A DNA stretch of 64,000 nt from NCBI GenBank assembly GCA_965204735.1, contig OZ242008.1:2048001-2112000 (forward strand), read 5' to 3'. This document shows, one piece after another, positions 17,022 through 59,021 of this stretch. Position numbers and translations under genes: made by a program. The stretch's first letter is position 1, and every line of letters starts with the position of its first letter. Source of the stretch: Longimicrobiales bacterium. Its GTDB lineage: Bacteria > Gemmatimonadota > Gemmatimonadetes > Longimicrobiales > Gaopeijiaceae. The notes under the pieces are model-generated. The model saw only the letters and a program-made list of their open reading frames with translations. It did no database searches and was not told where the DNA came from.

Positions 17022-17669
17022 ATGAAGATCCGACACGCGTTCCCGTCCCCCGCCCTTCTCCCGTCCCTGGTCGCGCTGGCCAGCTTTGGCTGGGCGTGCG
17101 CCCCGGCCGCCGAGGAAGCCTCCGAAGCCGGAGAGGCCTACGGCGAGGCGGGATCGTCCGCCGACGAGCACCCCGCCCCGCCGTCCGTCTTCGCCGAGAT
17201 CGAGACCGATCTGGCCACCGTGGAGGAGAAGCTGGTGGGGTTGGCGGAGGCCATGAGCGAGGAGCACTACGGCTGGCGGCCCATGGAGGGCGTGCGCTCG
17301 ACCGGGGAGCTGTTCATGCACGTCACGGCGGACAACTACCTGCTGCCGGCGATGGCGGGAACTCCGGTGCCGGAGCACACCGAGATCGTGGCCACCGACT
17401 ACCAGTCGGTCCTAGCGTTCGAGGCCAGCATCACCGACCGGCAGGCGATCATCGACGAGATGAAGGCTTCGTTCGTCCACCTGCGGGAAGCGCTGACCGC
17501 CGTCGACCCCGCCATGGCGGGCCACGAGCTGGAGTTCTTCGGCCGGACCTCCACCGTCCAGGGGCTGTGGTTCCTGACCACCGTCCACCTCCACGAGCAC
17601 CTGGGCAACGGGATCACCTACGCCCGGGCGAACGAGGTGGTGCCGCCGTGGAGTCGGGGGGAGGGGTGA
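17022..17669 (+). CDS. DinB superfamily exported protein
   Basis: WRPMEGVRSTGELFMH and HLHEHLG...YARANEVVPPWS motifs; AAGGAG RBS. Confidence 0.85.
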   Translation: MKIRHAFPSPALLPSLVALASFGWACAPAAEEASEAGEAYGEAGSSADEHPAPPSVFAEIETDLATVEEKLVGLAEAMSEEHYGWRPMEGVRSTGELFMHVTADNYLLPAMAGTPVPEHTEIVATDYQSVLAFEASITDRQAIIDEMKASFVHLREALTAVDPAMAGHELEFFGRTSTVQGLWFLTTVHLHEHLGNGITYARANEVVPPWSRGEG

Positions 17670-18886
17670 GGGTGGCAGCCTGACAGCGCCCTACGGCTTG
17701 GCCGGCCGTCTGAAGCAACGCCGGTGAGCTCGCCGGATCCGGGTGTCTCGAAGGGTGCAACGAACCCGTCCCCAGGAGTTGCCCAGTTTCTGCCGACACA
17801 CCGGGGACGGGTTCGCCACATCCAGTATCAGATCAGAATTCCACCGCGTTCCGCGGGAGGAGAGGATCTTGGGCCGTTCCCTGCGCCGTAGCGGAGCATC
17901 AACCTCATACGCAGCGGCAACGGTTCCATCGGGTATCCGTTCGGATATCTGCTCACCTTCTTTCCTTTCTTTTTAGGAATATCTTGTCTATTTTCATATT
18001 GAAAAACTGATTATTTGATAACATATGGAGTCGTACGCTAGCGTCCATTTTTTCCTTTCGTCGAAATGGATGGTTGTTATTGTCTTGACATCCAGACTGC
18101 TTTACAGCTCGATTACTAGTTCGATTCAGCCATGATTGCTCTTGTATCTTCAGAATTCTTTACCACAAACACACGACACAGTAACGAAACATCCAAACCC
18201 TACTACTACTACATCATCGCTCCAGATACTCTACTCTACTCTTGTGGAACTCGTGTCGTTCTCAGCGCGTCGTCTGACACAGCGTCTACTACTCGGTGAC
18301 TTCTACCTCCCCTTCTGGCCAACCTACCTCTCCGCTACGGGACTGCCGGCGCAACGCGGGTCTCCGGTGCGACCGTACCTGAATCATGACCTCCTACGCT
18401 CGCTCTGTCAACCCCCCGGCATCCACGCCATTGCCAAGCGTTCGGTAGGGCCGCAACCTGGGAGGGCGAGGTGCGAGGGTCGGACGTCTCGGGGCTCGTG
18501 TGCGAACTACGACTATCGGCGACGATAGGATTCAATTCGACCGCAGTGGAGGCCGGGACCATGGACGCAGTGAAGGCCGGGATCATGGAATCCTCGCGGC
18601 ACCCGTCAATCAGTTCCGAGGCGCGGGGCTCTCGGGAGAACCACGAGGCCATTCCCTCCTCCGTTCGCCAACCGTCGGAACGGACCGGAGCCGTGGGATG
18701 CGGTGAACACTCCCACCGGCAACGTGTTCGGCGCGCTCACGGTGAGCGTCCGTCGCTTCGGGTCGGCTCGGCGGTCCAGGGAGCCGCGGGTCCTGGCCCT
18801 GCACCTCCCCGGTCGCCCGGGCAACCGGTTCTTCTGGCCCTGGACCAGCCAGACGGTTGCCACCGTGGAGCGGCAGGAGACGTGAG

Positions 18887-21499
18887 GTGAGGGGCAAGCA
18901 AGCCGTCCTGCCCTGGGGGAAGCACGACGAGGAGTTGGGGCAATATCATCGGTTGGAGCACCACTGCGCGGACGTGGCCGCCTGCTTCGAGGCGTTGCTG
19001 GACGATCGCGTGCTGCTGGATCGCTTTCGGAAGGCGGCTGTACAGGCGGACGCCCTCGGCGACGTAACGCGGGCGCGGTTGACGGTCCTGGCGTTCCTGC
19101 ACGACTTCGGCAAGCTGAACGCAGGCTTTCAGTTCAAGCTCGAGTCCGACAGGACCGGGCTCCCGCCCAGAGCAGGGCACATCCGTGAGGCTTTCTGGTG
19201 TTTGGAGCGGCCAGGATACATGACGGCCTTGGGACTGGACGAGATGGCCCAGGCGTGGGGCTGCGGCCCCTTCGAACAGCTCCTGCGGGCGTCCTTGGCA
19301 CACCACGGAAGGCCGGCTGTCCGATACGACGGCAACCCCCCAGCCCTCTGGAGAGAAACCAACGGCTACAACCCCCTGGACGCCGCAAGAATGCTGGGCG
19401 AGAAGTGCCGATCCTGGTTTCCCACTGCCTTCACGGACGGACCGGAGTTGCCGGACGCTCCTCAGCTGGCTCACCTCTTCGCGGGGACGGTGGGCGTCGC
19501 GGACCAGATCGGATCGAACGAGCGGAGCTTCCCGTACGAGCCCATCCGCGACCCGACCTACATCGAGCGTGCCCGAGAGCTGGCCCAGAAGGCCGTGTCG
19601 GAACGGGGATTCGGCCGGGACGGCCGGTCCTCGCGGCTGGCGACGATCGATGTGGGCGCACTGTTCGGCTACGACAGGCCCCGACCACTCCAAACGGCGA
19701 CGCTCGATGCATCCCTCGACCAGAGACTCTTGATCCTCGAGAGCGAGACGGGTTCGGGCAAGACGGAGGCAGCCATTCTTCGCTTTGCCGCCCTCTGGAG
19801 TGCTCGCCGAGTGGACGGTCTCTACTTCGCGGTGCCCACACGGGCGGCGGCGAAGCAGCTGCACCGGCGGGTCCACGAGGCCCTGTTGCGCCTCTTTGGG
19901 GATCGATCGTGGAACGAGACGGTGCTTGCAATACCGGGATACCGGATCGTCGTCGGGACCACGGAGGGACGCCGGAAGGGCAGGTTTGAGGTCCAATGGC
20001 GAGACACGCCCGACGAGGAGACGCTTCGGGCCAGGTGGGCGGCGGAGGCGGCCCGCAAGTTCCTCTGCGCTACCTCTGCCGTTGGGACGGTCGACCAGGC
20101 CCTGCTGGCTGGGCTTCAAGTCAAATGGGCGCACTATCGAGGCGCGGCCCTTGCTCGCAGTCTGTTGGTGGTGGACGAAGTGCACGCGAGCGACGCCTAC
20201 ATGACGGAAGTGTTGCGGGGTGTCGTGCGGGACCACTTGGCCGTCGGTGGGCACGCCCTGTTGATGTCGGCGACGCTGGGTTCGGTGGCTCGCGTGGACC
20301 TGACGAGTGCGTCTACTGGGCGAAGGCGAGTTCGCCCGCCGGCGCGGTCGGAGGCCGAGCGGTATCCGTACCCCGCCCTGACACTCGCCGGCAACGAGAA
20401 GCCCCCGGTCGTCGACGCCATCGAAGACTGCGGCGTGGAGAAGTCGGTATCGGTGTCAGCTGCTCCCTTCTTGGACGATCCGGGCCGAATCGCTGTCGAG
20501 GCGTTGAGTCGTGCCCGGGACGGCGCCAAGGTCCTCGTCGTCCGCAACACGGTCAGGAGCGCGGTGCAGGTCTACGACGCGATTCGGACTCAGGGCGGAG
20601 GACATCTCCTGCTCCAAGTCGGCGGTCGGGAGGCGGTTCATCACAGCCGCTTTGCGGCAGAGGACCGGGAACGCCTCGACGAGGCTGTCGAAGGCTCGCT
20701 GGGGAAGTCGCGCCCCACCGGAGGGCGCGTGGTAGTTGGCACGCAGACCCTCGAGCAGTCCCTGGACATCGACGCCGACTACTTGATCTCCGACCTGTGC
20801 CCCATGGATGTCCTGCTCCAACGGATCGGTCGCTTGCACCGCCACTCCGAGAACAGGGACCGGCCCGACTCGTGTTCGACGGCCCAGTGTCTGGTGCTGA
20901 CGCCGGCAGAGGGCCTTGAGTCGGGCCTGGACGGACGCTTGACCCGATATGGCCTGGGGGCCGCGAGAGGCATAGGCGTGTATCGCAATCTGCTGGTCCT
21001 CGAAGCGACTCGCCGACAGATCGGGAGCGGCGCGGACTGGAGAATTCCCGCAATGAACCGGCAACTGGTCGAACGGGCCACGCACCCGGAGGTGGAGGAC
21101 GAACTGGCGAAGAGCCTCGGTAACCGCTGGATCACGAACGAGCAGGAGGAGTTCGGGCGCAGGGCTCAGGAGAGGCGGGTCGCCTGCGAGAACGCCCTGG
21201 ACCGGCACCAGCGGTTCGACGATGCCTTGGCCTTCCCGGGGACGGACGAGAAGATCGCTACGCGACTCGGAGAGGATGCCTGCCGGATCCGCTTGCCGGA
21301 TTCCGCCATCGGTCCGTTCGGGACCCGGGTTCGGACGTTTAGCCTTCCGGCCCACTTCTTCCGGGGCGGAGCGAGCCTGCCCAGCCGGGAGGAGGTGGAA
21401 CAGGCTTTGGTAACGGAGGTGGACGGGGTGCTGGTCCTTCGGGTGGGAGATCGTTCCTTCAGCTATGATCGTTGCGGAATCCGTCGGATCCGGCGCTGA
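18887..21499 (+). CDS. cas3: Type I-E Cas3 (N-terminal HD nuclease + SF2 helicase)
   Basis: HRLEHHCADV, LHDFGK, ETGSGKT, DEVH, MSAT, HHSRF, QRIGRLHRH. Confidence 0.95.
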   Translation: MRGKQAVLPWGKHDEELGQYHRLEHHCADVAACFEALLDDRVLLDRFRKAAVQADALGDVTRARLTVLAFLHDFGKLNAGFQFKLESDRTGLPPRAGHIREAFWCLERPGYMTALGLDEMAQAWGCGPFEQLLRASLAHHGRPAVRYDGNPPALWRETNGYNPLDAARMLGEKCRSWFPTAFTDGPELPDAPQLAHLFAGTVGVADQIGSNERSFPYEPIRDPTYIERARELAQKAVSERGFGRDGRSSRLATIDVGALFGYDRPRPLQTATLDASLDQRLLILESETGSGKTEAAILRFAALWSARRVDGLYFAVPTRAAAKQLHRRVHEALLRLFGDRSWNETVLAIPGYRIVVGTTEGRRKGRFEVQWRDTPDEETLRARWAAEAARKFLCATSAVGTVDQALLAGLQVKWAHYRGAALARSLLVVDEVHASDAYMTEVLRGVVRDHLAVGGHALLMSATLGSVARVDLTSASTGRRRVRPPARSEAERYPYPALTLAGNEKPPVVDAIEDCGVEKSVSVSAAPFLDDPGRIAVEALSRARDGAKVLVVRNTVRSAVQVYDAIRTQGGGHLLLQVGGREAVHHSRFAAEDRERLDEAVEGSLGKSRPTGGRVVVGTQTLEQSLDIDADYLISDLCPMDVLLQRIGRLHRHSENRDRPDSCSTAQCLVLTPAEGLESGLDGRLTRYGLGAARGIGVYRNLLVLEATRRQIGSGADWRIPAMNRQLVERATHPEVEDELAKSLGNRWITNEQEEFGRRAQERRVACENALDRHQRFDDALAFPGTDEKIATRLGEDACRIRLPDSAIGPFGTRVRTFSLPAHFFRGGASLPSREEVEQALVTEVDGVLVLRVGDRSFSYDRCGIRRIRR

Positions 21500-21565
21500 G
21501 GTCATCCCCAGGACGCTTTTAGCCAAGTGTCTAAAGGTGTGGTTTGCAGCGTCTGGGGTGTGGGG

Positions 21566-21594
21566 TTGACCTCTGCGAGCCGGTTCGCTATGGA
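21566..21594 (+). promoter_or_regulatory. Putative promoter upstream of the small ORF, mini-array and Cascade operon
   Basis: TTGACC (21566-21571), 17 nt spacing, TATGGA (21589-21594); the -10 match is imperfect. Confidence 0.5.
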
Positions 21595-21641
21595 TTCTTC
21601 ATCCGTTTCGGTCCCATAAACCACAGGGGGGAGAACAAGAG

Positions 21642-21890
21642 ATGATCGGCGAAACGAAAACGAAGATACCTGACGGAATCCGATTCCAGGTCGGGCTGGA
21701 AGGTGCCTATCGTGGGCTGGGCTTTCGAGCCGGACTGGGCGCGGAAGTCGTCCGCCATGACAGCGACAGGCCACGGCGCACTCCGGAAGGGCCGGAGATA
21801 ATCCCGTGTGGTGTGCCGCGTCTGGGGTCGAAGAGCCTCCTTCCCCGCCGGAGCGGGGGCACCGTCGCCACTGGCGGCGACCATGAATGA
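21642..21890 (+). CDS. Small ORF (82 aa) spanning the mini-array; candidate CRISPR-repressed peptide or leader ORF
   Basis: GGGGGGAG SD 8 nt before ATG; stop overlaps the cas8e start (ATGAATGA); no recognisable homology. Confidence 0.3.
   Translation: MIGETKTKIPDGIRFQVGLEGAYRGLGFRAGLGAEVVRHDSDRPRRTPEGPEIIPCGVPRLGSKSLLPRRSGGTVATGGDHE
21775..21864 (+). CRISPR. Cryptic one-spacer mini-array (CreR/CreA-like regulatory crRNA)
   Basis: Degenerate repeat 1 with stem CTCCGG/CCGGAG and 8-nt handle ATAATCCC; 32-nt spacer 21806-21837; repeat 2 TCCTTCCCCGCCGGAGCGGGG; spacer matches 21537-21559 (21/23) next to AAG. Confidence 0.8.
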
Positions 21891-23472
21891 CCTTCTCCGC
21901 GACCCGCTGATTCGGGTTCGGCTGGACACGGGCGTCGTCGAGGGGATGTCGTTGCCCGCCATCTATGCGGCCCTGGTAGAGGACCGGGTGGCCGCCTTCC
22001 CCGCTCTGCGGCCGCACCAACGCCACGGGTGGCACGCGTTCTTGGCCCAGCTTGCCGTGGTCGCCCTTCATTGGGCAGGACGCCGGCCACCCCCGAACGA
22101 GGCGGAATCGTGGCGAGCCCTGCTTCGGAGCTTGACCTCGGAGTGGGAGGCGGACGAGCCGTGGCAGCTGGTCGTGGAGAACCCGACGCGGCCCGCCTTC
22201 ATGCAGACGCCAGCACCCGAAGGGCTGGAAGCATACCGGAAACGGAGGGAAACGCCCGACGATTTGGACCTGTTGGTCACGTCCAAGAACCACGACCTCA
22301 AGCAGCAGGTCGCCGAGTGGGCGAGTCCAGAGGACTGGATCATGGCCCTGATCAGCCTCCAGACGATGGCTGGCTTCGGGGGCGCGGGGAACTACGGCAT
22401 CGCTCGGATGAACGGAGGGTACTCGTCGCGACCGTGCCTGGGGCTCGCCCCCAGTGGAGGAGGACTTGGGGCTCACGTGTTCTTCGATGTCGACAGGATG
22501 CTCCAGCACCGGGACCGCCTCCTGGAGGACTTTCACCACTATTACCAACCCGAAAATGGGCTGGCTCTGCTCTGGGCCGAGCCCTGGGACGGCAAGACCG
22601 CCCTCCGGCTGAAAGACCTCGACCCCTATTTCCTCGAAGTCTGCCGCAGAGTCCGACTGGTGTGGGAGGGTGGCCGCATGGTGGCCCGAACTGCGACCTC
22701 AACCACGGCGCGGGTCGCCGCCAAGACAGCCAACGGCAACCTGGGTGACTTCTGGACACCAATTCGGCGGGAAGACTCAGCGGCTCTCTCCGTCTCGGTT
22801 GTAGGGTTCCGATACGACCGCCTGGCAGACTTGATTCTCAGGAACCCCAAGCTCTTCAAGCTCCCAGCAGCCATGAAGGTCCCGGCCGGAGACGGGAATT
22901 CGTGCGCTCAATGGAAGTTGGTCGCCCGGGGGATGGCGTCCGGCCAGGGAAAGACCGAGGGCTACCATGAGCGGACTGGCGTCGTCCTCGCCGGCCGAAC
23001 GGCAAGAGCACTCATCGGCGGGGACACCAGCGTGACGCTCGCGAAGATCGCGGAAGACTTGATCAAGGAAATCGCCGAAGTCCAAAAGGCCCTTCGGTTC
23101 GGCGTCGCGACCGCCGCCAGTGGAGGCAAGGAGGCAAGCGAGATCACGAAAGCGGATCGGGAACAGGCATATCCCTTCGGTCGTCGGCTTGACGGCATCG
23201 CCGACGCATGGTTCTTTTCGGAGCTTCAAGATCGGTACCTCGCCACCGACGGCGAGCGGCCCGCCGTCCGGGCTAGGTTCGCCAGGTACCTCATAGCCAC
23301 AGCAAGGAAGTTGCTGAACGAAGCAGTTGATGCCGTGCCGGGCTCCACGATCCACCGTCACCGGGCGCGTGCCAGGGCGTTCCGCAGCTTCGAAGGCCAG
23401 TTGCGGCGCCTGGGCAGCCAGTTCGGAGATCAGCCCGAGATACTCGAACACAAGGAGGAAACCCATGACTGA
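21883..23472 (+). CDS. cas8e: Type I-E large subunit Cas8e (Cse1/CasA)
   Basis: MNDLLRDPLIRV, LRPHQRH, GAGNYGIARMNGG; first gene of the Cascade operon. Confidence 0.88.
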   Translation: MNDLLRDPLIRVRLDTGVVEGMSLPAIYAALVEDRVAAFPALRPHQRHGWHAFLAQLAVVALHWAGRRPPPNEAESWRALLRSLTSEWEADEPWQLVVENPTRPAFMQTPAPEGLEAYRKRRETPDDLDLLVTSKNHDLKQQVAEWASPEDWIMALISLQTMAGFGGAGNYGIARMNGGYSSRPCLGLAPSGGGLGAHVFFDVDRMLQHRDRLLEDFHHYYQPENGLALLWAEPWDGKTALRLKDLDPYFLEVCRRVRLVWEGGRMVARTATSTTARVAAKTANGNLGDFWTPIRREDSAALSVSVVGFRYDRLADLILRNPKLFKLPAAMKVPAGDGNSCAQWKLVARGMASGQGKTEGYHERTGVVLAGRTARALIGGDTSVTLAKIAEDLIKEIAEVQKALRFGVATAASGGKEASEITKADREQAYPFGRRLDGIADAWFFSELQDRYLATDGERPAVRARFARYLIATARKLLNEAVDAVPGSTIHRHRARARAFRSFEGQLRRLGSQFGDQPEILEHKEETHD

Positions 23473-27980: not shown

Positions 27981-30900
27981 GGCTTCCCCGTGTGGGCGGG
28001 GATAGACCACTTGAATGTGATCTCGACGAGCTTGCGGTCGCGGCTTCCCCGTGTGGGCGGGGATAGACCGCTGCACGCCTCCGGGCTGCCCGAGTAGACC
28101 GGGGCTTCCCCGTGTGGGCGGGGATAGACCGTTGTCGCCGTGGCGGATCATCGCGTCACCACCGGCTTCCCCGTGTGGGCGGGGATAGACCGCCCAAGTC
28201 GTCGGGCTGGTTGGGACAGCCGTTGGCTTCCCCGTGTGGGCGGGGATAGACCCGCCCGCCGCCTGGCCAAGGCGCGCGCGCGATGGGCTTCCCCGTGTGG
28301 GCGGGGATAGACCTCCGTCGTGGGTGGGACAGGGCATCGCCCACGAGGCTTCCCCGTGTGGGCGGGGATAGACCCAGCCAGTCCTCCGCCACATCGGCAA
28401 TCGCGGTGGCTTCCCCGTGTGGGCGGGGATAGACCCATGCAAAGGCGCGGATCAATGTCTTCCCCCTGGGCTTCCCCGTGTGGGCGGGGATAGACCGCGT
28501 GGCGCGATGCGGAGAGCATCGGCATCCACGGCTTCCCCGTGTGGGCGGGGATAGACCTGATCGAGTACCCTGTGACCGCGCGCGGCACGAGGCTTCCCCG
28601 TGTGGGCGGGGATAGACCGGCGTCGGACATGGACGAGGACGGCTGGGGCCGGGCTTCCCCGTGTGGGCGGGGATAGACCCAGGCCGTCGGGCATCGCTTC
28701 AGGCCAGGCAGCGGCTTCCCCGTGTGGGCGGGGATAGACCTGGACCCCGTGGACCGGCAGGAGGCGAACATCGGGCTTCCCCGTGTGGGCGGGGATAGAC
28801 CGTAGCGCGCGCTGAACCGTGCGGCCGCGACGGCGGCTTCCCCGTGTGGGCGGGGATAGACCCCAGCGTCGCGCCAGGCTCACGGCGCGGCTCGTGGCTT
28901 CCCCGTGTGGGCGGGGATAGACCCAAGGCGCGACCGACGGCGGCGCCGATGAGTTCGGCTTCCCCGTGTGGGCGGGGATAGACCGAGGACGAGATGACTG
29001 GACGGACCGAGACCCTGGGCTTCCCCGTGTGGGCGGGGATAGACCGCGGATCGCGTCACGCAGCGACCGCCGCACCGTGGCTTCCCCGTGTGGGCGGGGA
29101 TAGACCGGGACCCCCGACGGACCCCCGACGGGTCGGCGAGGCTTCCCCGTGTGGGCGGGGATAGACCCCGTGCGCGGGCGTGCGATCCGGACGCGGCGTA
29201 GGCTTCCCCGTGTGGGCGGGGATAGACCGTCGACGGGCGTGCAGACCTCGAGCTCTGCCCCGGCTTCCCCGTGTGGGCGGGGATAGACCGCGGTGAAGGC
29301 GGCAAGCGGGCGGGCGTACATCGGCTTCCCCGTGTGGGCGGGGATAGACCGCTCGCCTACGGGCTGACGTTCAGCGCCGCCGAGGCTTCCCCGTGTGGGC
29401 GGGGATAGACCGTGCCAGCCCTTCTTGTCCACCAGCCGCGCGCGGGCTTCCCCGTGTGGGCGGGGATAGACCCTGGAGCTTCCAACTGCGCGGCTGTCTC
29501 GCGCTCGGCTTCCCCGTGTGGGCGGGGATAGACCCTCGGTCGTGTCGCGGTGCAGGTCGTTCGGGTTGGCTTCCCCGTGTGGGCGGGGATAGACCTCCGA
29601 CCGGGCCGCGCATCTACGATCCGGACACGGCTTCCCCGTGTGGGCGGGGATAGACCGCAGGCGGCCATCGACAAGTTCGGCGCCGACGTGGCTTCCCCGT
29701 GTGGGCGGGGATAGACCGAAGACCTGGCAGTGCCCGTCGGACCGGCGGATGGCTTCCCCGTGTGGGCGGGGATAGACCCCGGCCGTTGCCGAAGCGGAAG
29801 TCGCGGGCCATGGCTTCCCCGTGTGGGCGGGGATAGACCGCGAACCAGCCAGCTGGGCATGGGGCAGTCGGTGGCTTCCCCGTGTGGGCGGGGATAGACC
29901 CTTCATCCGTCGGCGCGTGATCCGCGACCGCGAGGCTTCCCCGTGTGGGCGGGGATAGACCGCTGACCAAGGCGATGGCGACGGCGATCCGGGAGGCTTC
30001 CCCGTGTGGGCGGGGATAGACCCCCGCCTGCTCGGCGCATCGCGGAGCACGGGCCGGCTTCCCCGTGTGGGCGGGGATAGACCGTCCGTAGATCGCTGCT
30101 GCTGTGGTACCGGTACGGCTTCCCCGTGTGGGCGGGGATAGACCGTCCGTAGATCGCTGCTGCTGTGGTACCGGTACGGCTTCCCCGTGTGGGCGGGGAT
30201 AGACCCGTCCCCGGCCGAGACCGGGGCACAGGAGAGCGGGCTTCCCCGTGTGGGCGGGGATAGACCGCTTCAGATGCGCGGCGGGCGGACCGGCCCGTCG
30301 GCTTCCCCGTGTGGGCGGGGATAGACCCCAACGGAGCAGGGACTGACGGACCAGCAGGAGGGCTTCCCCGTGTGGGCGGGGATAGACCGTAGGCGGGGAA
30401 CGCCTTGGCTGCGCACCGCCGGGCTTCCCCGTGTGGGCGGGGATAGACCGCCGGGGAGGCCCGGCGTCCTCGATCCCCGACCGGCTTCCCCGTGTGGGCG
30501 GGGATAGACCCAGCGCGTCGTGGGCCTCGACCTTGGCCCAGTCGGCTTCCCCGTGTGGGCGGGGATAGACCGTAGGCGCGCCGGGGTACGCCGTGGGCGC
30601 GTGCGGCTTCCCCGTGTGGGCGGGGATAGACCCATGGAAGATGCGCCCATAAAGCTTATTGCTTGGGCTTCCCCGTGTGGGCGGGGATAGACCCGATTCG
30701 GGTCATGATGACGGACGCTCGGACCAGGCTTCCCCGTGTGGGCGGGGATAGACCATAACTCGTTTTCCTCGCCGCCGCCGCGAGACCGGCTTCCCCGTGT
30801 GGGCGGGGATAGACCCTTCGTGGGCATCACGCTTCGGTCTCCGCTGACGGCTTCCCCGTGTGGGCGGGGATAGACCCCACATCGTCATATGGGGGCCGGC

Positions 30901-31593
30901 TCCTGACGCGGCTTCCCCGTGTGGGCGGGGATAGACCTGCAGTGGGCGGCACGGGCGCGCTGAGCTACGAGGCTTCCCCGTGTGGGCGGGGATAGACACC
31001 ACGTCCCCGGCGGCAGCCTCGATGCGCACGAGGCTTCCCCGTGTGGGCGGGGATAGACCCGAGACGAACCACGCGGGCCACAGACCCCACTCGGCTTCCC
31101 CGTGTGGGCGGGGATAGACCCGGCCCGACGTGGGCGCGACGGTCGAGGTGGACGGCTTCCCCGTGTGGGCGGGGATAGACCCGCGATTCGCCTTCTACCT
31201 GGCGGCCGGCGGTCGGCTTCCCCGTGTGGGCGGGGATAGACCCTTGGCGTCCGTCGCCCGCTCGCCCCGCTTGGCGGCTTCCCCGTGTGGGCGGGGATAG
31301 ACCCTGGTCATCCCAGAGGTCGAGCCCCCGGCAAGAGGCTTCCCCGTGTGGGCGGGGATTGTTACCGGCCACTGAAAATTGCACACTTCTGGCCGTCGAA
31401 AATTGCACACTTCCGGCTCCTGACGAAGCGGTGGCGCGAGCCCCTTGGGCTGCCGTCCTCTTCGACCAGATGCGGGCGGTCGTCGTGAGCCATGGGCGAG
31501 CGACCCGGCTTCCGTGTGGGCGGGGATAGACCCGAGGGCATGCTGGACACCGAGGCTGCGGCCCGGGCTTCCCCGTGTGGGCGGGGATAGACC
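27981..31593 (+). CRISPR. Type I-E CRISPR array, repeat GGCTTCCCCGTGTGGGCGGGGATAGACC (28 nt), 58 repeats by manual count, mostly 33-nt spacers
   Basis: 61-bp periodicity; repeat 56 truncated by an insertion at 31360; repeat 57 lacks two C. Confidence 0.98.
31360..31506 (+). mobile_element. IS21-family remnant (terminal sequence plus istA fragment) inside CRISPR repeat 56
   Basis: Starts TGTTACCGGCCACTG; motif GAAAATTGCACACTTC twice (31374, 31398); encodes LFDQMRAVV, resembling the IstA catalytic-Asp motif. Confidence 0.7.
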
Positions 31594-31715: not shown

Positions 31716-31826
31716 CCTAGCAGGAGACCATCTGCGGGCCGAACCCTCCGACTCAAGTCGATGCCCACCCAGCGCCGCCCAAGCTCCTGCCTAGCAGGAG
31801 ACCATCTGCGGGCCGAACCCTCCGAC
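31716..31826. repeat. Two perfect 37-bp direct repeats separated by a 37-bp unique sequence
   Basis: CCTAGCAGGAGACCATCTGCGGGCCGAACCCTCCGAC at 31716-31752 and 31790-31826. Confidence 0.9.
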
Positions 31827-37736: not shown

Positions 37737-39413
37737 GTGTTCGCCCTATCTTTTCGCTTTCCCGCGGGCCGCTACCACGCGACGCCATGGGGACGCAACG
37801 TCAACGAAGCCGACGTAGCTTGGCCGCCGGAGCCATGGCGGGTGCTGCGCGCCCTCATCGCGACCTACTGGCGGAAGGGCGACCACTCGCGCTGGTCTGA
37901 AGGGGACCTCGCAGGCCTGATCGATGCCCTGGCGACGTCGTTGCCGGAGTACAGCCTGCCAGAGGGCGCAATCCACGCCCATACGCGCCACTACATGCCG
38001 ATCAGCGGGTTGGCCAAGGACGGCCGCGCGAGGACGACGCTTGTCTTCGACGCCTTCCTTCGGTTGCCTGTGGACGCGACCCTGGTCGCTTGCTGGCCGG
38101 ACGTGACGCTCGATCCCACCTCCTTCGAGCTCGCCCAAGATCTCGCGTGCGCCATGGGATACCTTGGCCGCGCGGAGAGCTGGACGGAGTGCGAGGCGCT
38201 GGCGGAGTGGCACGGCAACCGGAACTGCTGTCCAGCGTCCACGGCCTTCGACGGCGACCCCGTGCGACTGATCGCCCCGCTCAGCCCAGGTGCGTATTCG
38301 GTGGAACGGCAACGGATCATCGACGAGAGGACGCGGGCAGTTCAGGAGAAGGCCAACCGACCGCTGACGGCGCGACGGGCTACCGCGCTGCTCGCGAAGG
38401 AATTCACCAGCAAAGGTCGTAAGGCGCACACGCTACCTGTGCGTCTCGTCGACGCGCTCACCCTGGACACGGCCGACTATCAGGACCGTGGATGGAGCCA
38501 GCCCCCGGCCGCCCAGGAGGTCATTTACGCTCGTGCCCCGACAGCCGCTCCAGGTGTTGTGCCTCGACGGTTTGCCAAACGCCAATCGTCTCTGAGGGGA
38601 CAGAAGTTGCCTACCGTAGCACGATTTCTCTTGGCAGGACGACCGCTCCCGCGCATCGAGGACGCCGTGAAGATCGGCGAACTGATGCGTCTCGCCGCAC
38701 TCGCGCAGTTCGGCTGGGAAGCGGACGAGACCGCCGGAGGCCGGAGACGGCCCAGGGCGCCCTCGGAGATATCTGGCCGAGGGGCCGACGGGAAACCCCT
38801 CAAGGATCCATCGCACTCGCACGCGTTTTGGCTGCCGGAAGATGCTGACGGGGACGGCTTGATCGATCACGTGTCGGTGTACGTCGCTTCTGGAATCACC
38901 GACGACGTTCGGGCGAAGCTCGACCGCATCACGCGCCTGTGGCTGACATCGAAGCCAGCCGAAGGTGCCGAGGCCGACCCGCGGGCGCGCAAGGAATGGC
39001 GGCTCGCGCTCGAAGGCTTCGGCCAGCCGGCCGACTTCGCCGGTGGCGCACGCATCTTCGGGAGATCTCGTCGCTGGGTCAGCAGCACGCCCTTCCTGGC
39101 CAGCGGTCACCTGAAGGGCGCCGGGTATCTCGGCGAGGTCCGCCGATTGTTGGCACGTCGCGGCTACGAATCGACCGGAGTCGAAGTGGCACCAATCAAG
39201 AAGATCGTAGTCGGTGGGACCGAGCGACGTGCGATCCACTTCCACCGCTTTCGTTCCCGTGGCCGGGAAGTGCAGCCCGACGCCGCCGGCACCCTGCTCA
39301 AGATTCGCTTTCCAGAACCAATCGAGGGTCCGCTGGCCATCGGCTACGGCAGCCACTTTGGCCTCGGCCTTTTCACGGCAGCATCAGCTTGCGGCGAACA
39401 GCCTGAATGCTAA
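37737..39413 (+). CDS. csb2: Type I-G Csb2 (Cas5-Cas6 fusion), module 1
   Basis: [29 protein letters not shown]-terminal [11 protein letters not shown]. Confidence 0.93.
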
Positions 39414-41794: not shown

Positions 41795-41860
41795 AGGCGG
41801 GAATATCGCCTGCGCTCGACGGTGACTGGACGGGGCGCGGGGCGGGGCGCAACGGGCTAG

Positions 41861-42018
41861 CCGCCGTCGACCTTGTCACGGCGGGCCACGAGCTGGAGTT
41901 CTTCGGCACGGACCTCCACCGTCCAGGGACTGTGGTTCCTGACCGCCGTCCACCTCCACGGGCACCTGGCAACGGGACCACGTACGCCCGGGTGAGCGAG
42001 GTGGTTCCGCCGTGTAGT
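41861..42018 (+). pseudogene. Degenerate duplicate of the 3' end of the DinB-family gene (17497-17654)
   Basis: Colinear match (e.g. GGCGGGCCACGAGCTGGAGTTCTTCGGC) with substitutions and single-base indels. Confidence 0.9.
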
Positions 42019-42143
42019 AGCCGGACGGAGTGGGCGGTACGGGGGCCAGCCCCGTCGGGGAACTCATGGCGAGATGTCACCATCTCGGTTATCTTGGTGG
42101 GAAGATTCTTGCCCCATTCCCTCCCTGACGAGGACGGCAACCG

Positions 42144-57550: not shown

Positions 57551-58858
57551 ATGGACCGGAAGTACGACGCCATCGTGATCGGAGCCGGGATCATCGGCGC
57601 TTCCGTTGGCTTCCACTTGGCGAAGGCGGGCCGCCGTACCCTGAACGTGGACAAGCGCGCCGCTGCCGGCTTCGGCTCCACGAGCAGCAGCTGCGCCATC
57701 GTTCGCTTCCACTACTCGACGCTCGAGGGCTGCGCCATGGCCCGGGAGAGCTACTTCCACTGGCTGGACTGGGGGCGCTGGCTGGGCGCGCCGGACGAGA
57801 AGGGCTTGGCAAAGTACGTCAACACCGGATGCTTGGTCGTCAAGAACGAGCGGAACGGCCGGCTGGCGCGCGTCATGCGCTGCCTGGACGAGCTCGGCGT
57901 CCCCTACGAGGAACTCACGGCGCGACAGACGGGCGAGCGCTTCCCGTGGCTCGACGCGGCCGCCTACGGTCCCCCGGTTCCCATCGACGACGAGCGCTTC
58001 GGACAACCGACGGGCGACGCAATAGACGGAGCCGTGTACCTGCCGGAGTCGGGCTACGTGGACGATCCGACGCTGGCTTGCCACAACCTGCAGCGCGCGT
58101 GCGAGCATCACGGCGGACGGTTCCGGTTCGGCGTCGAGGTCGTGGAGGTCCTTCGGGAGGCGGGACGGGTCGCCGGCGTGCGGCTGGCCGGGGGCGAAGA
58201 GATCGAAGCGCCGGTGGTGGTGAACGTCGCGGGTCCCCACTCGGGCGCGGTGAACGCCCTGGCCGGCGTGACGGGCGGCATGAACGTGGGAACCCGCCCC
58301 CTCAAGGTGGAGGTCTGCTACGTGCCGGCGCCGAAGGAAGTGGAGTACGAGCAGGTGGCGCCCCTGGTCTCCGACGGCGACGTGGGCTGCTACTCCAGGC
58401 CGACGACGGGCAACCACGTCGTCATCGGCTCCGAAGACCCGGAGTGCGACGCCCGCGCCTGGGTGGACGACCCCGACGACTACAATGCCAACTTCACCCG
58501 CCAGTGGGAGACCCAGGTCATGCGCGAGGCGCAGCGGATCAAGGGACTGGGAATCCCCGGGCAGCCCAGCGGCGTCGTGGACCTCTACGACGTGTCCGAC
58601 GACTGGCTCCCCATCTACGACAAGTCCGACCTGCCCGGGTTCTACATGGCCGTGGGCACGTCGGGCAACCAGTTCAAGAACGCTCCGGTGGCGGGCCGCG
58701 CAATGGCCGAGCTGGTGGATGCGGTGGAGGCGGGCCGCGACCACGACGCCGACCCGCTGGCCGTCCCGCTGCCGCGCACGGGGCGCGTCTGCGACCTGGG
58801 CTTCTTCAGCCGCCGGCGGACCGCGAACTACGAGTCGTCGATGTCGGTGATCGGCTGA
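57551..58858 (+). CDS. FAD-dependent oxidoreductase (DAO/sarcosine oxidase beta-like)
   Basis: GAGIIG Rossmann motif, GYVDDP, VVNVAGP, YDVSDDWLPI, GTSGNQFK. Confidence 0.9.
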   Translation: MDRKYDAIVIGAGIIGASVGFHLAKAGRRTLNVDKRAAAGFGSTSSSCAIVRFHYSTLEGCAMARESYFHWLDWGRWLGAPDEKGLAKYVNTGCLVVKNERNGRLARVMRCLDELGVPYEELTARQTGERFPWLDAAAYGPPVPIDDERFGQPTGDAIDGAVYLPESGYVDDPTLACHNLQRACEHHGGRFRFGVEVVEVLREAGRVAGVRLAGGEEIEAPVVVNVAGPHSGAVNALAGVTGGMNVGTRPLKVEVCYVPAPKEVEYEQVAPLVSDGDVGCYSRPTTGNHVVIGSEDPECDARAWVDDPDDYNANFTRQWETQVMREAQRIKGLGIPGQPSGVVDLYDVSDDWLPIYDKSDLPGFYMAVGTSGNQFKNAPVAGRAMAELVDAVEAGRDHDADPLAVPLPRTGRVCDLGFFSRRRTANYESSMSVIG

Positions 58859-59021
58859 CGGTCACGCCGGACGGGTTGGGGTGGGCGCCGCGTGGCGCCG
58901 AAGGCCGACGGTCGATGTCGATGATCGGCTGACGGTCACGCCGGACGGTTGGGGTGGGCGCCGCGTGGCGCCGAAGGCCGACGGTCGATGTCGGTGATCG
59001 GCTGACGGTCACGCCGGACGG
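58837..59021. repeat. Tandem repeat, ~74-bp unit x2.5, containing the oxidoreductase 3' end
   Basis: Units start at 58837, 58911 and 58984 with GTCGATGTCG(G/A)TGATCGGCTGACGG. Confidence 0.92.

Follow-up and report, generated by a model that had tools for sequence, protein, structure and literature searches.

A putative Cascade-autorepression mini-array embedded in a leader reading frame upstream of type I-E cas8e

Between cas3 and cas8e of a type I-E CRISPR-Cas locus we observe two degenerate repeats around a single spacer, a mini-array that is probably a cas-regulating CRISPR unit carried on the mRNA of the cas8e operon itself and used by Cascade to repress that operon. The guide mechanism is already known; the new part is that the mini-array is embedded in a leader open reading frame (ORF) that would be coupled to cas8e. 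The anatomy of the unit, a unique spacer match, spacer/target covariation, the PAM and a conserved open frame are all read from sequence comparison. These features are consistent with a guide that would be processed and bound by Cascade to repress the operon, and with a leader that would be translated and coupled to cas8e.

The window, by which we mean the whole stretch of 64,000 nt that was analysed, contains a complete type I-E system made up of the following parts.

18857 to 21499, forward strand: cas3 (type I-E), above the cut-offs of TIGR01587 and TIGR01596; the start is that of the longest ORF, uncurated
21883 to 23472, forward strand: cas8e (cse1), with the ATG start placed by aligning relatives
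3' of cas8e, up to 27924, forward strand: cas11, cas7, cas5, cas6e, cas1 and cas2
27981 to 31360, forward strand: main type I-E array, 56 repeats of 28 nt

The cas6e product scores 44.7 against a cut-off of 45.2. In the main array 53 of the 54 spacers are 33 nt long, and their first base is variable (C in 24, G in 23, T in 5 and A in 2). Natural protospacers, sought with the main-array spacers in a phage collection and in the genome itself, gave no confirmation of the PAM: the phage collection returned no match, and two 26/32 self-matches in the genome, which lack an AA PAM, were judged to be chance. An insertion-sequence end, presumably IS21-like, interrupts the distal part of this array at 31360-31510 and leaves array remnants at about 31507-31593; similar ends occur in six other places in the genome.

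The gap between cas3 and cas8e holds the mini-array, its presumed target and the leader ORF.

21534 to 21536, forward strand: PAM, AAG
21537 to 21559, forward strand: paired part of the target protospacer, 21 of 23 nt matching; the full 32-nt target ends at 21568
21566 to 21594, forward strand: candidate sigma-70 promoter, TTGACC-17-TATGGA, weak and putative, with a predicted start site at about 21601
21624 to 21641, forward strand: purine-rich Shine-Dalgarno (SD) region, the strongest of 7 candidate starts
21642 to 21890, forward strand: leader ORF of 82 codons, in frame through repeat 1, spacer and repeat 2
21781 to 21805, forward strand: degenerate repeat 1, with a 6-bp stem CTCCGG/CCGGAG (21781-21797) and an 8-nt 5' handle (21798-21805)
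21806 to 21837, forward strand: pseudo-spacer of 32 nt
21838 to 21858, forward strand: degenerate repeat 2, with a 6-bp stem (3' handle) in a hairpin at 21843-21858

Re-read from the sequence, the AAG, the stem, the handle, the 32 nt and the second hairpin all lie where a first-pass annotation of this DNA had placed them. The whole unit (21781-21858) reads repeat, 33 nt, repeat, and ends 24 nt upstream of the cas8e start. Exactly 33 nt separate the 7-nt handle from repeat 2, as in the main array, and this common spacing fixes the register, with the PAM at 21534-21536 and spacer position 1 opposite 21537. The mini-array handle is identical to the main-array handle at 5 of 7 positions. The stability of both hairpins is unremarkable on its own (z -0.6 and -0.15), and an Rfam scan of 21300-22100 gave no relevant family, with one chance match (E 0.55). 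A related strain, compared over one contig, shows a single change across 21781-21858, at spacer position 18 (21823). The sequence shows these features of a CreR unit: two degenerate repeats around one spacer adjoining the cas operon, an 8-nt 5' handle kept in repeat 1 and a hairpin in repeat 2, and a PAM-proximal partial match. A CreR is by definition free of an associated toxin; the unit of the window does carry a cargo ORF, which might encode one.

The match between spacer and target is not due to chance. Mismatches occur at positions 8, 12, 24-27 and 29-32, the same reading as before, when a 21/23 match directly after AAG had been described with mismatches at 8 and 12 and with pairing largely lost from position 24. 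Within the window, the next-best site for the first 23 nt of the spacer has 8 mismatches, compared to 2 at the target. Over the whole genome (4.14 Mb), the target agrees at 19 of the 20 non-flipped positions among 1-23, compared to 16 at the next six sites; AAN together with the seed is found at 16 genomic sites, and apart from the target a single one of them scores 13. The mini-array's own DNA follows CCC rather than a PAM, and a search of viral_contigs gave no viral copy of the spacer/target pattern.

Searches with Cas8e yielded 32 distinct loci besides the window, two of which lack cas3 and were left out; the others were sorted by eye and by pattern, after their sequences were known. The layout of the window recurs in 15 related loci, namely 13 of the 20 whose Cas8e is at least 48% identical, plus two at 40%, and these include several unrelated spacer/target pairs. 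The rest comprise loci with short gaps, loci that retain a lone remnant of repeat 2 (L003, L012) and loci whose mini-array directly follows cas3 (L006, L010, L042). In the window and 12 relatives, no site in the entire locus matches the spacer better than one on the same strand, 15-48 nt past the cas3 stop. The target of L032 comes from a search of the intergenic region only; for L011 and L046 the target was placed by its position and PAM and scores no better than background, and the targets of L004, L038, L039 and L045 exceed background by one base. Where the mini-array directly follows cas3, its target is further downstream, within the cas8e promoter; L006 and L010 (Chromatiaceae) have it on the opposite strand, L042 on the same strand.

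The first-pass annotation had proposed covariation across homologous cas3-cas8e gaps as a check, and the result is positive: a locus's own spacer and target are identical at 11-15 of 15 positions, compared to a mean of 6.5 for swapped pairs, which reach 12 or more only inside two groups of kin. Over the 16 loci, mismatches amount to 42/48 at positions 6, 12 and 18, where about 75% would be expected by chance since these positions were ignored in target choice, compared to 26/240 elsewhere, with none at positions 4, 5 and 10. Judged from these counts, positions 6, 12 and 18 drift freely while the remaining spacer positions are held. The mismatch at position 8, which we take to be inside the seed, is present in 3 of the 16 loci and counts against the guide reading. 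The PAM-equivalent site is AAC in eight loci, AAT in five, and AAG, AGG and AGT in one each. AAN is thus found in 14/16, and the earlier designation of AAG as the PAM holds for the site itself, but the PAM of the lineage looks like AAN rather than strictly AAG.

The repeats show a similar pattern of conservation. At the second pair of the repeat-1 stem, 11 loci have C-G and 5 have T-A, a switch that probably arose by a single compensatory change on the tree. Perfect pairs in the repeat-2 stem number 6-7 in each of the 16 intact loci, compared to 2-3 in the two loci without repeat 1. The base 3' of the repeat-2 stem varies among loci, which makes cutting at repeat 2 uncertain. Taken with covariation and PAM conservation, the loss of stem pairing in repeat 2 of loci without the guide argues, at the level of sequence, for the Cascade-guided repression put forward in the first-pass annotation. 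One of these losses is seen in a genome of the same genus, G001 (L003:9864-10001), where a deletion equivalent to about 21580-21823 of the window takes the -10 box together with the start of the leader, repeat 1 and the greater part of the spacer, and leaves the target-like site and a decayed repeat 2. The module was lost several times on the Cas8e tree and is dispensable, since eight intact cas genes remain in L003 and L041.

The exact promoter is less certain. TTGACC-17-TATGGA, at the place proposed before, is the top-scoring pair in the region, but it is weak and falls below the threshold of a consensus scan of 21300-22100, which returned 0 promoters. The full 32-nt target does overlap the -35 box, as had been claimed, through the TTG of TTGACC (positions 30-32), but these positions are unpaired and pairing stops 7 nt short of the box; the target in the window would instead cover the UP-element region. 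Several relatives have good sigma-70 boxes at the target or just upstream, and in many the target extends over the -10 box or the start site, with a good -35 box lying across the cas3 stop. In 16/16 loci the PAM side faces the oncoming polymerase. This is the blocking side for dCas9 and dCas12a, according to the part of the source available to us (PMC9758054), and by analogy we infer that it may also be so for Cascade. A terminator search in the region found none.

The leader ORF had been missed in the first-pass annotation; its presence gives the layout a resemblance to CreTA and hints at a second level of control. Its SD scores -9.8 kcal/mol against the genome's own 16S tail, compared to -9.2 for the second-best start, and its TGA overlaps the cas8e start by 8 nt. 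The ORF with the best SD was picked regardless of frame, within a range of start positions chosen once the data were known. It ends on the cas8e start in 10/16 loci, a count inflated by shared ancestry, compared to 1.23 expected when the mini-array is fixed and the flanks are shuffled. With clades collapsed, the figure is 7/11 compared to 0.98 expected (P about 3e-6), whereas control loci give 1/8 compared to 0.62 expected, a ninth control having no start. The six failures are L032, with a stop 13 nt inside cas8e, L034, L046 and three Terriglobia-class loci; L034 and L046 were counted as failures although a lower-ranked start in each opens an ORF of this kind, and the three Terriglobia-class loci carry a tRNA-like cargo in place of the ORF. 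Overlaps of 8 nt and of 4 nt with cas8e both recur, and repeat 2 lies 24, 27 or 30 nt from the start in the loci with 8 nt. Five gene-called homologs, 65-84% identical, stay open in this frame across the mini-array; one shifts near the end, and the other four end like the ORF of the window. The SD, the conserved frame and these homologs point to a translated ORF behind the target site.

Translation itself appears better conserved than its peptide product. In a single clade of four members, with transition bias uncorrected, pN/pS is 0.52-0.69 in frame compared to 0.82-2.5 out of frame, which suggests weak purifying selection on the peptide. Between clades the leader peptides show hardly any resemblance (profile comparison probability 0.2%), and homology across clades was mostly not significant, with p 0.003 for the window and L034 in an uncorrected 12x12 table. 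The segment before repeat 1 has 30-44 codons in 11 of the 12 lineages examined, and six codons in L039. A profile search of 1.84 billion representatives returned only 2 close homologs of the leader; the L036 leader gave 4 close homologs, and an atlas search gave matches of 0.76 only, which are leads at best. For the window leader, AlphaFold predicts a beta-hairpin at residues 12-37 (pLDDT about 77 there, pTM 0.27), a fold that was not reproduced in the leader of the second group (mean 55.6).

We propose that one transcript, starting shortly after cas3, would carry the SD, the leader ORF, repeat 1, the spacer, repeat 2 and cas8e. Cas6e would cut below the repeat-1 stem, and possibly the repeat-2 stem too, to give a guide of about 61 nt; we assume that the first cut falls at the base of the stem, at the position used by E. 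coli Cas6e, leaving the 8-nt handle. Cascade loaded with this guide would bind the AAG site with about 23 bp of pairing, which is too short to license Cas3, and would lower transcription, either by occluding the upstream flank of the promoter or as a roadblock to RNA polymerase coming from cas3. Ordinary crRNAs or anti-CRISPRs occupying Cascade would relieve this repression. The leader would be translated up to the cas8e start and, since the guide lies inside the coupled ORF, a Cas6e cut would free the guide and sever the ORF from cas8e, thereby stripping that mRNA of its upstream ribosome supply. By splitting the leader RBS from cas8e, such a cut may also act as a second and faster brake, though this is less likely than not: several relatives have a strong cas8e SD, so that coupling need not be essential, and the cas8e start is not generally occluded. 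Equally tentative is an mRNA with two locks, in which Cas6e alone would silence existing cas messages and assembled Cascade would silence the promoter. Here, the Cas6e cut would abolish coupling and leave a truncated leader without a stop, and ribosome traffic over the hairpins would set the amount of guide, tying autorepression to the translation state. The leader peptide, if toxic, would be disarmed by the same cut, and a tRNA-like RNA would occupy the cargo slot in a sister lineage.

Other explanations differ mainly in the role given to the ORF. It is quite possible, if not our preferred reading, that the mini-array is a plain CreR guide and the ORF mere filler, the translated 280-nt leader coupling polymerase and shielding the mRNA while the cut has no regulatory role. 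The frame and the stop position are indeed conserved and the peptide is not, and cas8e has its own SD in several loci (-9.5 to -14 in L034, L037, L038 and L040). The opening energies of the cas8e start region span 4.5-26 in loci that have the module and, overlapping this range, 9.7-12.4 in loci that lack it; we rejected occlusion of this start as a general feature. Nevertheless, an ORF that is mere filler has no need to end precisely at the cas8e start, whereas the 8-nt and 4-nt overlaps recur, and the cas8e SD of the window is weak (-4.8) and sits in a predicted hairpin, which a close strain breaks. We regard as highly improbable that the unit is a non-functional relic, left by a local duplication or by a self-spacer in a dead mini-array. 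G001 does keep eight intact cas genes and its array after the deletion, but distinct spacer/target pairs with a PAM and position-specific mismatches occur across the Cas8e tree, and the stem decays only where the guide was lost.

A CreTA/CreP-type addiction unit, with the guide as antitoxin to a toxin that is either the leader ORF or its RNA, is unlikely but compatible with cas autorepression; repression of the promoter and the Cas6e cut within the ORF would keep the toxin off until Cascade is lost or inhibited. The order of promoter with target, cargo and mini-array resembles the Halobacterium hubeiense creTA operon, Cascade-repressed toxin ORFs lie between cas3 and cas8 in the I-E locus of Citrobacter rodentium (96 bp) and in Acinetobacter I-F, and the near-constant length before repeat 1, the weak purifying selection and the tRNA-like cargo at the same place in three Terriglobia-class relatives would all suit a toxin. 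By contrast, the peptides are weakly alike between clades, L039 has only its six codons, and the predicted beta-hairpin is not shared by the other group. The leader peptide has no hydrophobic segment (window maximum 0.46), and no tandem rare codons follow its start, the rarest codons being single at positions 6, 9, 23, 53 and 56. The window leader and three homologs have no Pfam match at E<=1, NCBIfam gave none, and neither collection indicated KilAC or another known toxin domain. Among the marks of a rare-codon CreT, which are a strong SD, consecutive rare codons and a stem-loop, only the strong SD is present. These negatives are not decisive against a toxin, because known CreTs are also poorly conserved, and dispensability of the module does not separate toxin from non-toxin readings.

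As a Cascade-autorepression unit, the mini-array would work like CreR/CreA, and the core idea is already known. Autorepression has been demonstrated for Salmonella enterica type I-E CreR (Liu et al., bioRxiv 10.1101/2023.03.10.532045) and, in the accessible part of that preprint, repression by Cascade is relieved by crRNA and by AcrIE8. As described there, Salmonella CreR is likewise a degenerate two-repeat mini-CRISPR at an I-E locus, with repeat 1 giving the 5' handle and repeat 2 the 3' handle, and it has a partial match beside AAG, upstream of casA. Unlike Salmonella CreR, the mini-array of the window is predicted to be part of the cas8e mRNA, lies 3' of the target and inside a putatively coupled ORF, and ends 24 nt from the start codon, with pairing of 21/23 rather than 15 consecutive nt; the same part of the preprint describes no ORF through the Salmonella mini-array. 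The available text of Shmakov et al. (bioRxiv 10.1101/2023.03.03.530964) places mini-arrays in about 19% of bacterial I-E loci, and the window agrees with these in its position between cas3 and cas8, its PAM-flanked target in the cas8 promoter region and its sixth-position mismatches. However, the cases examined in that text run opposite to cas3 with the better repeat upstream, whereas the mini-array of the window is co-directional, has its better copy in repeat 2 and is embedded in a leader ORF.

The creTA of H. hubeiense (type I-B) is a self-repressed operon upstream of the cas genes (PMC8501985), whose cargo, in the part of the article available, is a separate RNA toxin of six codons with rare codons and a stem-loop, with a termination site after creA. 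The window differs in having no tandem rare codons and no terminator found, and in an ORF that continues through the guide. In the I-E system of C. rodentium, CreT is a peptide and creA is on the opposite strand (PMC12055562, available part). Like this unit and, from what is accessible of its description, the A. baylyi I-F CreP/CreA (bioRxiv 10.1101/2024.01.05.574328), the window has, between cas3 and cas8, a small ORF preceded by a strong RBS and by a promoter that Cascade would target; the C. rodentium target overlaps the UP element, as that of the window would. Toxicity is shown for the C. rodentium and A. baylyi cargos, whereas in the window the leader ORF is at most a candidate toxin. The literature covered was mostly open-access articles and the main text of preprints, whose supplements may list co-directional I-E cases; in it we found neither a regulatory mini-array lying within a translated, cas8-coupled ORF nor a report of Cas6 cutting cas mRNA there.

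Another case of RNA-guided Cas autorepression adds little. The leader-ORF layout recurs in two distant Cas8e groups and, if true, it would add a post-transcriptional layer in which the nuclease that matures crRNAs cuts the message of the cas operon within a coding region, and translation would compete with guide production. The layout also indicates that some short 'hypothetical' genes upstream of cas8e are codes overlapping a guide RNA, and the loci provide candidate type I-E CreT cargos (peptide or tRNA-like) outside enterobacteria.

In Terriglobia-class loci, the cargo between the target promoter and the mini-array consists of a long hairpin and a tRNA-like gene, at L031:2551-2621 (forward strand), L004:9723-9796 (forward strand) and L044:3397-3467 (reverse strand). 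ARAGORN assigns all three to Ala (TGC in L031, TGC in L004, AGC in L044), and Rfam scores only that of L031 (55.8 bits). These genes lack the G3:U70 pair of alanine tRNAs and end in U73, as tRNA-Cys does. They may be mismatched or pseudo-tRNAs and candidate RNA toxins under Cascade control. The L044 gap also contains a third repeat-like hairpin 3' of its leader-type mini-array, with 143 nt in all before cas8e.

The window contains further repeats. A type I-G system (cas3g, cas8g1/csx17) occupies 31689-54000, with 38 repeats of 37 nt from 51139. Just upstream of its cas3, at 31716-31826, two identical 37-nt repeats flank a 37-nt spacer; these repeats are unlike the others of the window and occur nowhere else in the genome, and the best genomic match of the spacer is 18/22. 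A 36-nt repeat in three copies is found at 58837-59019, and a 138-nt repeat at 39413 and 49414. Finally, a coding segment of about 190 nt is duplicated at 17483-17668 and 41847-42032, 24.4 kb apart and with 82-95% identity.
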